Shown: positions 1 through 64,000, counted from the first letter of the stretch. The stretch: 64,000 nt of DNA from an uncultured Aliarcobacter sp. (GCA_963664305.2 CAXXLV010000002.1:1408001-1472000), one strand, 5' to 3'. Made by a program: the numbers.

Positions 1-3000
1 GGTAATTGCAAAAGACACATATAATCTTGTAAAATAAATCTATCTTATACTTAAAGTATTATGTACATATTTGTACATGATACTTTTAAATCCTATTTTT
101 TACTCAAAATAATTTCTAAAACCTTTAGTTTCTCTACACTTTTTTAATTTATTGTTACTTTTTACTTTAAATTATTCAATTCTGATATCTTTATAAAACA
201 AAATTAATTTTAAAAGCAAATTTAGATTTAAGTTTTATTATAATGCGTACAAATTTTATATTATAAAAATAATAAAGGAAAAATTTATGTTAGTATTTGT
301 ATTAAATGCTGGTTCATCTTCTTTAAAATATCAATTAATCAATGCAAAAACATCTGAATTAAAAGCAAGTGGACTAGTAGAAAGAATTGGAATCGATGGT
401 ATTCTAAAACATGAAGTAGGAGAAAATAAAAAATTAACTTTTGAATTACCTATTCCTACTCATAAAGAAGCAATTGAATTAGTTCTTAGAATTTTAACAA
501 ATGATGAAACTAAAGTTATTAACTCAATTAGCGAAATTGAAGCTATTGGACATAGAGTTGTTCATGGTGGAGAATATTTTAAAAAATCTGTTTTAATAGA
601 TAATGAAGTAATCGATAAAATTGAAGAACTTATCCCTTTAGCACCATTACATAATCCAGCTCACGTAATTGGAATAAAAATTTGTAGAGAATTAATGCCA
701 AATGTTCCTAATGTTGCAACTTTTGATACAGCATTCCACCAAACAATGCCAGAAGAAAACTTCTTATATGCAGTTCCATATGGAGATTACACTGAGCATC
801 ACTTAAGAAAATATGGTTTTCACGGAACTTCACACTATTATGTTTCAAATGAAGCTGTAAAACTTTTAAATAAAAAGAATAGCAGAGTTATTGTTTGTCA
901 CTTAGGTAATGGTTCTTCTGTGTGTGCAGTTAAAGACGGAAAATCAATAGCAACTTCAATGGGATTAACTCCACTTGAAGGTTTAATCATGGGTACAAGA
1001 TGTGGAGATATTGATGCAGGTGTTATTCCATATTTAATGGAAAGAAAAGGTCTTGATTCTCACCAAATTATCAATTACTTAAATAAAAAATCTGGAATTT
1101 TAGGAGTTTCTGGAATTAGTTCAGATTTAAGAGAAGTAATAAAAGCATCAAATGATGGAGATAAAAGATCTAGAATTGCAATTGAAATGTTATGTGGAAG
1201 AATTAAAAAATATCTTTGTTCATACGCTGGATTAATGCAAGGAGTTGATGCAATTTGTTTCACAGCTGGTATTGGTGAAAACTCTGATTTAATTAGAGAA
1301 AAAGTTTGTGAAGGTTTAGATTTCATGGGAATTGAAATGGATACTGAAAAAAATAAAGTTAGAACTCCTGGAATAAGAGAAATTCATAAAGAATCTTCTA
1401 AAACAAAAATCTTTGTTATTCCTACAAATGAAGAATTAGTTATTGCAAAAGACACATACAATTTAGTTAAATAAGAATAAATTGTTACCTTTTAGAATTC
1501 TATTTTAAAATTGAGTATTATGTACAATTATTGTACATAATACCATACTTTTTTACATATTTAAAACAAATAAACTCCATATATTATCACTATTTCTCAC
1601 TTAGATGATATTTTTTTATATTTATGTATATTTTATGTACTTTTTTTTAATTATGATATAAAATATACATAAGTGAGATTATAAGAGATTGCTATTTTAA
1701 TGCTATGTTTCTCAATTATAATTTTTCCACAAAGTTTAATAGTAGAAAGGATAACTTACCTATGGGTTTAATTGAAAGTATCAAAGAGAAAGCGAAACTA
1801 CAATTAAGAACTATTGTTCTGCCTGAGCCAGAAGATGAAAGAGTTTTAAAAGCTGCTCAACAAGTAATTGAAGAAAAAACTGCAAAAGTTGTGTTAATTG
1901 GAAATGTTGAAACTATAAAAGCAGATGCTGCAAAGTGTGGTGCAAATATAGAAGGTGCAACAATTGTTGACCCAAAAAATTTCGACAATATCAATAAATA
2001 TATTGATGAGTTAGTTGAATTAAGAAAAAGTAAAAATCTTTCAAAAGAAGAAGCTACTGAAATTATGTTAAATGAGCCAAGATTTTTTGGTTGTATGATG
2101 GTAAGACTTGGTGATGCAGATGGTTTAGTTGCAGGTTCAAATTCTCCAACTGCTGATGTTTTAAAAGCTGCTATTCAAGTTATTAAAACTGCGCCTGGAA
2201 TTAATACTGTTTCTTCTACATTTATTATGGAAACGGCTGATGGTAAATTTGGAGATAATGGTTTAATATTATTTGCAGATTGTGCTGTTATTCCAGAACC
2301 AAATGCAGAGCAATTAGCTGACATCGCTTGTGCAACTGCTGCAACTGCTGCTTCTGTTGTAGGTTTAGATCCAAGAGTTGCAATGTTATCATTCTCAACA
2401 AAAGGAAGTGCTTCTCATCCATTAGTTGATAAAGTACAATATGCTTGTGATATTCTAACTGAAAGAAATGTTGATTTCTCATTTGATGGTGAGTTACAAG
2501 CTGATGCTGCTATTATTGAATCAATTGGTGCTAAAAAAGCTCCAGGTTCAAAAGTTGCAGGAAAAGCTAATATTTTAGTATTCCCTGATTTACAATCTGG
2601 AAATATCGGATATAAACTTGTTCAAAGATTTGCAGGAGCTGAAGCTCACGGTCCAATCGTTCAAGGATTAAATCAACCAGTAAATGACCTTTCAAGAGGT
2701 TGTTCAGTAGAAGATATTGCAAATTTAGTTGCAATCACAGCTACACAAATTAAATAATTTTAAATCAATAACAAAACTAAGGAGAGAGAGTATGTTAGTA
2801 TTCATTTTAAATGCAGGAAGTTCATCATTAAAGTATCAATTAATGAACCCAGTTATCAAAAAAGTATTTGCACAAGGTATTTGTGAAAGAATCGGTATTG
2901 ATGGTGTTTTAAAACATGAATTTGGTGAAGGTAAAGAGTTCAAAAAAGAAATTCCAATGCCAACTCATAAAGAAGCTATCGAAGCTGTATTATCAACTTT

Positions 3001-63000: not shown

Positions 63001-64000
63001 CTGCAAAAGATTCTATTGAAGATAAAATCAAAGGATTGGATATTGGAGCAAATGATTATTTAGCAAAACCTTTTTCATTTGCAGAATTACTTGCACGAAT
63101 TAGAGTTCAATTAAGAACTAATAGCGTAACACAAACAAAACTAACAATTGCAGATTTAGAACTTGATTTATTAAATAAAACAGCCACAAGAGCAAATGAA
63201 AATATAACTCTAACTGCAAAAGAGTTTTCACTTCTTGAATATCTAATAAAAAACAAAAATAGAGTTTTAAGTGAAACAACAATAAATGAGGCTCTTTCTT
63301 CTTTTGAAGATTCTAATATTAGTAATATTGTAAATGTTTATATTTATAGATTAAGAAATAAAATTGATAAAAATTTTGATAAAAAATTAATCAAAACGAT
63401 CAGAGGAATAGGATTTAAAATCAGTGAAGATTAATTTAACAATCAAAAAGAAACTTTTAACTTATCACTTTCTTATTCAAACTTTAGTTTTAATGATTTT
63501 TTCATTTTCATTATATAAGGCTTTAGAAGTTTCAACTACAGATAAACTTGAAGCTACTTTAAAAGTTATCATTCTTGATATAACTGATGATATTTTAGAA
63601 AAAGATAAAATCACAGATAATGTTTTAGATGAAGAGAAAGAGTATAAATTTGAACCTTTATATATTAGAATTTTAGATAATAAAACTCACAAAAAAATAA
63701 CACAAACAAGTAATTTTCCAGATAATATAGAACATGATGACAATTATTTAAATGTTTTAAAAGAAAATATCGTAACTTTTGAAAAACAAAACAACTATTT
63801 AGTAAGTAGGATAAAAATAGATTTCCATGGTGAACAAACAATCATTATTGAAGCTGTAACAACAAAAGATATGCTAACTTCAACATTAGAAAACTTACTA
63901 TATATTTTTTATTTTATACTTCCAATAGTTCTTATTTTTGCAGTAATTGGTGGAAACTTTATAATCTATAAATCATTTTCACCAATTGAAAATATTTTAT

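Follow-up and report, generated by a model that had tools for sequence, protein, structure and literature searches.

The window analysed here, a stretch of 64,000 nucleotides (C2:1408001-1472000; window position = C2 position minus 1408000), belongs to the 2.78 Mb genome (27% GC) of an uncultured Aliarcobacter sp., whose assignment to the Arcobacteraceae was taken from an earlier note and fits the naming of close protein relatives. Within window positions 1-64000, no gene was found to need an ATA, ATC or ATT start (ATH, or AUH in mRNA); all sites described below are located elsewhere in the genome and are collected in Table 1 together with infC, where NTG stands for ATG, GTG or TTG. As claimed in the earlier note, the named C2 genes carry an ATH codon led by a Shine-Dalgarno (SD) site and lack an early NTG: all sites were present as described, with an SD core (AAGG/AGGA) 5-9 nt before the ATH and the first in-frame NTG 13-68 codons further on or, in the pilin gene, absent.

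Table 1. Features with proposed ATH starts in the Aliarcobacter sp. genome, and infC.
Feature	Coordinates	Strand	Start	First in-frame NTG after ATH (codons)	Remarks
uvrB	C2:1262656-1260683	-	ATC	+61	AAGGAG before the start; another ATC one codon upstream; Walker A precedes first ATG
tatD	C2:943653-942865	-	ATA	+68	in-frame stop 2 codons upstream; first NTG is ATG
rnpA	from C2:108871	+	ATT	+63	start within rpmH 3' end
prepilin-like gene before priA	C2:355456-355884	+	ATC	none	
HI0933-family flavoprotein	C2:1492400	-	ATC	+13	
RhlE-like helicase	C2:417248	-	ATT	+34	
cobB	C2:661510	-	ATC	+22	
ftsK	C2:635269	-	ATA	+28	weak HMM support
ArsS-family kinase	C2:632303	-	ATA		
558-aa protein	C2:203532	-	ATA		no family match in HMM scans; label HD from earlier note
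DUF234 protein	C2:363458	-	ATA		
membrane protein	C2:1085237	-	ATA		
amidase	C2:1242558	+	ATT	+198	ATT also in G017
TetR regulator	C2:302676	+	ATT		
7TM-DISM kinase	C2:1188555	+	ATC		
candidate start	C2:190428	+	ATA		
candidate start	C2:652203	+	ATA		label UbiB-like from earlier note
candidate start	C2:954750	+	ATC		
candidate start	C2:1139260	+	ATA		
54-aa CxxC protein (zinc ribbon)	C2:1311773/1311776	+	ATC/ATA		not forced
radical SAM	C1:126743	-	ATT		ATH at same codon in G017
permease	C1:816935	+	ATC		ATH at same codon in G017
response regulator	C1:515102	+	ATA		ATH at same codon in G017
putative start	C1:838239	+	ATA		ATH at same codon in G017
putative start	C1:505874	+	ATC		ATH at same codon in G017
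candidate sites	C1:21821, 618488, 866720, 917509				putative
infC (IF3)	~C1:954411	-	TTG		175 aa

With gene calls made for this analysis and an SD model trained on 962 genes (consensus AAGGA), a long extension, i.e., an NTG-free 5' extension of at least 20 codons, was detected in 56 of 2646 tested genes. An SD site was present in 26 of these extensions and was followed by ATH in 20, as compared to 7.0 expected. Under a strict rule considering the codon at the best SD position, which was set post hoc after the data had been seen, 21 of 30 genes lacking an early NTG carried ATH against a background of 11.9% (p = 2e-13), and no non-ATH codon was seen twice at this SD peak. A loose catalogue rule was discarded as mostly noise, since it returned 60 ATH matches where four decoy codon sets gave 28-45, and some of its candidates were fragments; after this failure, strict-rule and ortholog-backed sites were kept. 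An excess of GTT at SD spacing (16 versus 2.1) turned out to be an artefact, 14 of the 16 being antisense copies of one repeat. The number of ATH-start genes in the genome is estimated at 20-29 (0.8-1.1%). In the hand-picked list of 29 sites, ATA accounts for 14, ATC for 9 and ATT for 6; ATC is over-used and ATT under-used both relative to Ile codon usage (p = 4e-5; ATC 9/29 with 3.1 expected) and relative to the extension background (p = 0.004). The codon adaptation index of 27 of these genes is slightly low (0.668 versus 0.687, a small shift), with none above the 77th percentile.

The conserved N-termini of the proteins point to the same starts. Curated HMMs begin before the first NTG for UvrB, TatD, HI0933, CobB, RhlE, RnpA, the ArsS kinase, TetR, radical SAM, the permease and the 7TM-DISM kinase, and weakly so for FtsK, while 6 of the 21 scanned candidates gave no family match. 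The prepilin-like gene had no HMM match either, and is presumably a pilin on the strength of its N-terminal motif. An SD at normal spacing thus precedes ATA, ATC or ATT with no usable NTG before the conserved N-terminus, short extensions being doubtful in this respect. The 54-aa zinc ribbon, put forward earlier as a forced ATH gene, is different: an in-frame ATG without an SD lies 11-12 codons upstream, and the protein matched no Pfam or NCBIfam family. The exact start is ambiguous between adjacent ATH codons in uvrB, tatD and HI0933. The earlier statement that such genes are missed was borne out for ab initio calls, as seen from the truncated products of this genome in a protein collection (UvrB 596 aa, TatD 194 aa, RhlE 401 aa), but not for NCBI records, in which RhlE and TatD already start at ATH. 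AXX95337.1 begins at the RhlE ATH codon, with RefSeq entries starting 7 or 16 codons before it or 27 codons after it, and 40 of the best 120 TatD matches are full length, with MIID or MILD.

Conservation of ATH starts across the Arcobacteraceae, also claimed before, was evident in rnpA, tatD, the pilin gene and uvrB. In rnpA (20 genomes, 19 genera), 19 ATT and 1 ATC were found with no NTG in the next 18-20 codons and with an in-frame TAG three codons upstream in 18 of 20 genomes; this ATT is partly fixed by the rpmH codons. Among 20 genera, each represented by one genome, tatD showed ATH exactly three codons before DTH in 16 and NTG in 4; the Ile two codons past the start is also replaced by Leu, unlike the start codon, and in one ATH case a GTG overlaps the SD. 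The pilin gene carried ATH in 10 of 10 metagenome loci with a stop 5-9 codons upstream, one locus having a TTG two codons upstream. For uvrB, the best 30 of 60 family matches (our genome included) had 11 ATC, 4 ATA, 14 ATG and 1 TTG at the aligned start, and every ATH-type uvrB (15/30) had a strong SD. In 8 of the 14 ATG-type uvrB genes, TATAAT lies 4-8 nt before the ATG; with this -10 box and no SD, these eight are predicted to be leaderless. The proposed toggling of uvrB between SD-led AUC/AUA and a leaderless-type AUG was hence recovered, as was the presence of NTG at the same codon in relatives without ATH (uvrB and tatD). The SD was stronger with ATH than with NTG in related genomes (uvrB p = 2.6e-6, tatD p = 0.006), these p-values being overstated by the non-independence of kin. 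In 0.8 Mb of the related genome G017, seven orthologs of listed genes were compared; six had ATH at the matching codon, four of these with a different ATH. The aligned codon was confined to start-capable codons in uvrB, tatD, rnpA, the pilin gene and the seven G017 orthologs. HI0933 had ATT in the one family relative read, an NTG was available in all 17 genomes parsed from other families, and cobB homologs were present in 16 of 31 genomes. The reciprocal-best-hit comparison of starts was noisy, with alignments extending into 5' regions, and served for leads only. Two ortholog matches below 40% identity were left out of the counts given here, and one infC, one ksgA and two HI0933 loci were unparsed.

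These data bear on whether AUH initiation takes place at all. Broken genes, sequencing errors, readthrough or frameshifting, RNA editing or a reading of AUA as Met might each mimic the pattern, and the fragments among the loose candidates, together with the fact that translation from the ATH codons is deduced here from sequence, would fit such an explanation. We regard it as very improbable: the core genes are unbroken and have been conserved in about 20 genera, many genes have an in-frame stop 1-9 codons upstream, three different ATH codons are in use, and one public contig, possibly from the same source sample, is identical to the uvrB start region. A mitochondrial-type code with AUA as Met was rejected, since Ile is what internal ATA aligns with in 53.5% of 1504 columns, Met not being among the five commonest residues, and TilS, the lysidine enzyme, is present. 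Taken together, SD-led ATH starts most likely occur in about 1% of the genes of this Arcobacter-family bacterium, including genes for DNA repair and RNA processing.

The initiation machinery offered little in the way of a cause. Both tRNAfMet genes are normal, with a CAU anticodon and three G-C pairs, the SKR tail of uS9 is intact and rsmD is present in 41 of 41 genomes; an altered tRNAfMet, an altered uS9 tail and a missing TilS or RsmD were thus ruled out. IF3 retains R25 as well as positions 75, 106, 110, 131 and 176, which have functional roles. It differs at Q33N and R66K (E. coli numbering), while R99S was dismissed as a lineage-specific change, being also found in PDB chain 5me0_Y. No RsmB/RsmF gene was found in four of four family genomes, ours included, and 16S rRNA has A at 967. 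RsmB/F is nevertheless present in 3 of 3 genomes of family f13, which also has ATH starts. A 16S A971 (E. coli numbering) is patchy and was not found in nine f13 genomes searched. Neither the loss of RsmB/F nor A971 tracks the ATH trait across families, so both were rejected as the cause, and apart from infC no machinery change examined tracks it.

Part of this evidence could be read as relaxed fidelity under AT pressure: the ribosome or IF3 would read AUH well, and drift from ATG to ATA would be near-neutral in poorly expressed genes. ATH starts do occur in the two sampled families of highest AT content (27-28% GC) and not in G072 of family f11 (34.5%), ATA is the commonest codon, and an R66A change in IF3 raises AUA initiation 1.5-2x (PMC9723500), which together with the RsmB/F and 967 observations would suit such a drift. 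The enrichment of ATC opposes the AT bias of the genome, the fidelity components listed above are kept, and in other genomes these genes have different weakened starts; moreover, the AT-rich genome G180 has no ATH start in 292 genes, a test of low power. We consider relaxed fidelity quite unlikely.

Scans of further genomes showed that the habit is not confined to the Arcobacteraceae, contrary to what the earlier note had implied. Convincing ATH sites were found in about 4 of 797 genes of G017 and in about 4 of 409 genes of G036 from family f13, namely ksgA and genes for an MFS permease, a hydrolase and a phosphatase, and ksgA starts with ATA in 2 of 2 f13 and 2 of 2 f20 genomes; the canonical starts of tatD outside the family, used before as a control, are gene-specific. 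No convincing ATH start was found in 381 genes of G072, and none in 292 genes of Sodalis sp. CWE, where SD use is weak; a Fundicoccus genome had one in 343 genes (LacI, ATC). Left out of these counts were 2 of 6 rows each for G036 and G017 (fragments or chance) and one G072 row. Pooled, 28 ATH sites in 3852 genes compare with 1 in 1016 (p = 0.019; hand-judged counts from partial genomes). Enrichment in ATH starts thus extends to at least two families, which differ in the genes concerned.

The codons that replace ATH are informative as well. In 27 further genomes, 26 of them outside the family, uvrB had no ATH start and 3 strong-SD ATG, and 9 of 27 had SD-led UUG or GUG. Among 29 parsed ksgA loci, 13 TTG, 2 GTG and 10 ATG starts were found. 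ATG with a strong SD was seen at 6 of 57 loci for uvrB and at 3 of 29 for ksgA, as compared to 519 of 1179 genes of our genome. In uvrB and ksgA, ATH hence appears to be one of several weakened starts, beside SD-led UUG and SD-less or leaderless-type AUG. Since the alternatives are also weakened, selection for low initiation by normal fMet-tRNA is the best reading.

Following this, we propose that these are probably true SD-led AUH starts, used with normal fMet-tRNA at low output and maintained by selection for weak initiation. The ordinary CAU initiator tRNA would read AUH with a third-position mismatch, a strong and well-spaced SD would hold the AUH codon in the P site, and discrimination of the mismatch by IF3 would cut output to a few per cent of that of an AUG start. 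Products that may be kept scarce in this way are proteins of DNA repair and processing, the RNase P protein, an RNA helicase, FtsK, the amidase, sensor kinases, a regulator and the pilin. Selection would act on weak initiation and not on one codon, such that orthologs interchange AUA, AUC and AUU with SD-led UUG/GUG and with SD-less or leaderless-type AUG. In E. coli, AUA, AUU and AUC yield 3-8% of AUG output with normal machinery, AUC being the highest (PMC3643588), so no special machinery is needed, and reporters in S. aureus also showed reduced initiation (PMC13009471). On the other hand, AUA is reported to equal AUG in an optimised context in vitro (PMC5499595), in which case the starts may not be weak. 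On our reading of the sequences, these starts appear to be a dense case of a known way of keeping proteins scarce and not a new mechanism.

What stands out is infC itself. It starts with TTG, which is rare as a Leu codon and mostly lies 1-6 codons past an in-frame stop, in all 57 distinct Campylobacterota genomes that could be read (29/29 and 30/30 parsed loci in two sets, outside f13 and genus g64), whereas five outside controls had ATT, ATT, ATT, ATC and ATG, the last in G182. No AUU, AUC or AUA start of the type used for infC autoregulation was thus found, and with UUG throughout the phylum sample, the classic AUU autoregulation of IF3 seems to have been lost in Campylobacterota. This contradicts the printed generalisation that infC starts with AUU or AUC in all bacteria (PMC5499595) and raises how IF3 stays balanced in this phylum. 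An IF3-based explanation had been dropped in the earlier note; IF3 indeed looks intact, but in view of infC to drop the idea entirely was premature. If infC was freed from AUU feedback, the level of IF3 or the IF2/IF3 ratio might vary with conditions, and genes could have been selected for IF3-sensitive AUH or leaderless starts and be co-regulated. The published behaviour of IF3, which does not discriminate against UUG and opposes non-canonical codons and leaderless mRNAs (PMC4611024, PMC9031893), is compatible with this, as is the toggling of uvrB between the two IF3-sensitive modes. Yet the orthologs of uvrB and ksgA also use SD-led UUG or GUG, which IF3 accepts, infC has UUG phylum-wide although G072 shows no convincing ATH start, and the ATG of infC in G182 indicates that loss of AUU is not unique. 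We find such co-regulation rather unlikely, and equally so the fuller version in which Campylobacterota gave up the infC AUU loop and the Arcobacteraceae (f13 and f20 with ksgA and others) couple repair, RNA processing, division and sensing to the IF2/IF3 balance through AUH and leaderless starts that act as IF3-sensitive switches; if true, it would amount to a translational regulon built on start-codon fidelity.

Selection for weak initiation at SD-led AUH codons, the reading that we favour, has precedents. Neither AUH starts in Arcobacteraceae nor UUG infC in Campylobacterota were reported in the literature searched, which lay outside supplements and most subscription papers. The A. butzleri genome paper mentions only manual curation of starts (PMC2147049), and a C. 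jejuni study of translation initiation sites called peaks only at ATG, GTG and TTG (PMC11955535), so that ATH sites could not have been seen there. E. coli N-terminomics gave few ATH starts (PMC13245402). About 1% of Arcobacteraceae proteins would be shortened or overlooked by ab initio gene callers.

In S. aureus, infC, cvfC1, ccpN and citZ combine, as here, a strong SD with a third-position mismatch and are conserved in relatives, with reduced initiation; these are four SD-led AUA/AUU sites with Ribo-Ret or reporter evidence, as compared to 20-29 sites identified from sequence here, where the SD is a short AAGGA and infC is not among the ATH genes (PMC13009471). In Listeria monocytogenes, 6 of 2265 core genes have fixed non-canonical starts, with infC ATT and rnhC ATC confirmed (PMC13068326); both cases share ATH fixed in conserved genes and clade-linked switching of start codons. 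The Listeria rate of 0.26% compares with 0.8-1.1% in our genome (p = 0.018 with 20 sites counted, 5e-4 with 29; the methods differ), AUH starts being about three to four times as dense here. The AUU starts of infC and pcnB in E. coli, with IF3 autoregulation, belong to the same codon class (PMC5499595, PMC4611024, PMC3643588), whereas here infC starts with UUG and AUA and AUC outnumber AUU. Frequent AUU and AUC starts are also cited for Mycoplasma gallisepticum (in PMC5499595). Mitochondria initiate at AUA with a formylated C34 tRNAMet (PMC3643588). Both share with our case the use of AUH starts in AT-rich genomes; by contrast, internal AUA is not Met here, and the genome has TilS and an ordinary tRNA set. 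Interconversion of leadered and leaderless genes has been described in Epsilonproteobacteria, where TAnaAT-N5-9-ATG leaderless genes, often of DNA repair, switch both ways (PMC3847290); that study scored only ATG, GTG and TTG and its main text does not name uvrB, whereas the leadered state found here is AUC or AUA. With AUH and leaderless AUG replacing each other, selection for weak initiation can be tested in one gene after another. As a molecular device, the SD-led AUH start is already known; notable here are its density, its placement in core genes such as rnpA, uvrB and ftsK, its exchange with leaderless AUG and an infC that begins with UUG.

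At the AUA starts of sensor-kinase-type genes in the genome under study (G000) and a relative (G017), the Shine-Dalgarno sequence (AGAGGAG or GAGGAG) is supplied by the terminal codons of the gene before, which apparently encodes a response regulator, and this arrangement suggests that translation of the two genes is likely coupled. Before the ATC of uvrB, a three-codon reading frame (Met-Lys-Phe-stop) was observed in frame, ending seven codons upstream; it was not found in most relatives.

Coordinates of the features discussed (window, positions in the window)
Feature	Location	Strand
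Sensor-kinase-type AUA starts	G000:C2:632303; G000:C1:838239; G017:C1:28595	
ORF before uvrB	G000:C2:1262678-1262689	-
ksgA/rsmA ATA start	G036:C1:217917; loci L178, L179, L189	
LacI-family gene, G178	L380:12820-13764	
infC, G000	C1:953884-954411	-
16S helix 31 loop, G000	e.g. C2:1095640-1095670	
Deviant 16S copy	G036:C1 ~149,400	
Giant gene	G000:C1:995-1000 kb; C2:1774-1780 kb	
Acetate-kinase-like genes	window 287-3991 and gene just upstream	
Tandem MnmA-like genes	window 8352-10504	
GC-rich 20-mer	window 17790-17812	-
668-aa protein	window 43831-45837	-

At the start of the window and just before it, three acetate-kinase-like genes flanking a phosphotransacetylase-like gene share near-identical N-termini. 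Within the window, two tandem genes with an SGG.DSS motif are MnmA-like, and a 668-aa protein opens with a poly-Asn run. The 20-mer, GC-rich amid AT-rich intergenic DNA, loosely resembles a tRNA/tmRNA 3' end and may be a remnant of an attachment site. A giant gene containing 366-bp tandem repeats sits at each of the two contig ends and probably caused the assembly break.

The helix 31 loop of the G000 16S rRNA reads C965 G966 A967 U968 A969 C970 A971 in E. coli numbering. No RsmB/RsmF-family methyltransferase was found in the whole G000 genome save 8 kb; the control search gave a match in 14/14 control genomes. Of the three 16S copies in 400 kb of G036 (family f13), one departs from the other two both in helix 31 and in the 1400 region. 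This copy appears to be of foreign origin, possibly through contamination or a chimera.

Outside the Arcobacteraceae, ksgA/rsmA starts with ATA after AAAGGA in the Campylobacterota families f13 and f20, and a LacI-family regulator in one Fundicoccus genome (G178) with ATC preceded by GGGGAGAAGG. Because KsgA modifies the small subunit, the ksgA start could be part of a putative feedback loop. The classic IF3 autoregulation appears to be missing in the Campylobacterota sampled, since infC, in G000 and at 57 Campylobacterota loci, begins not with AUU, AUC or AUA but with TTG.
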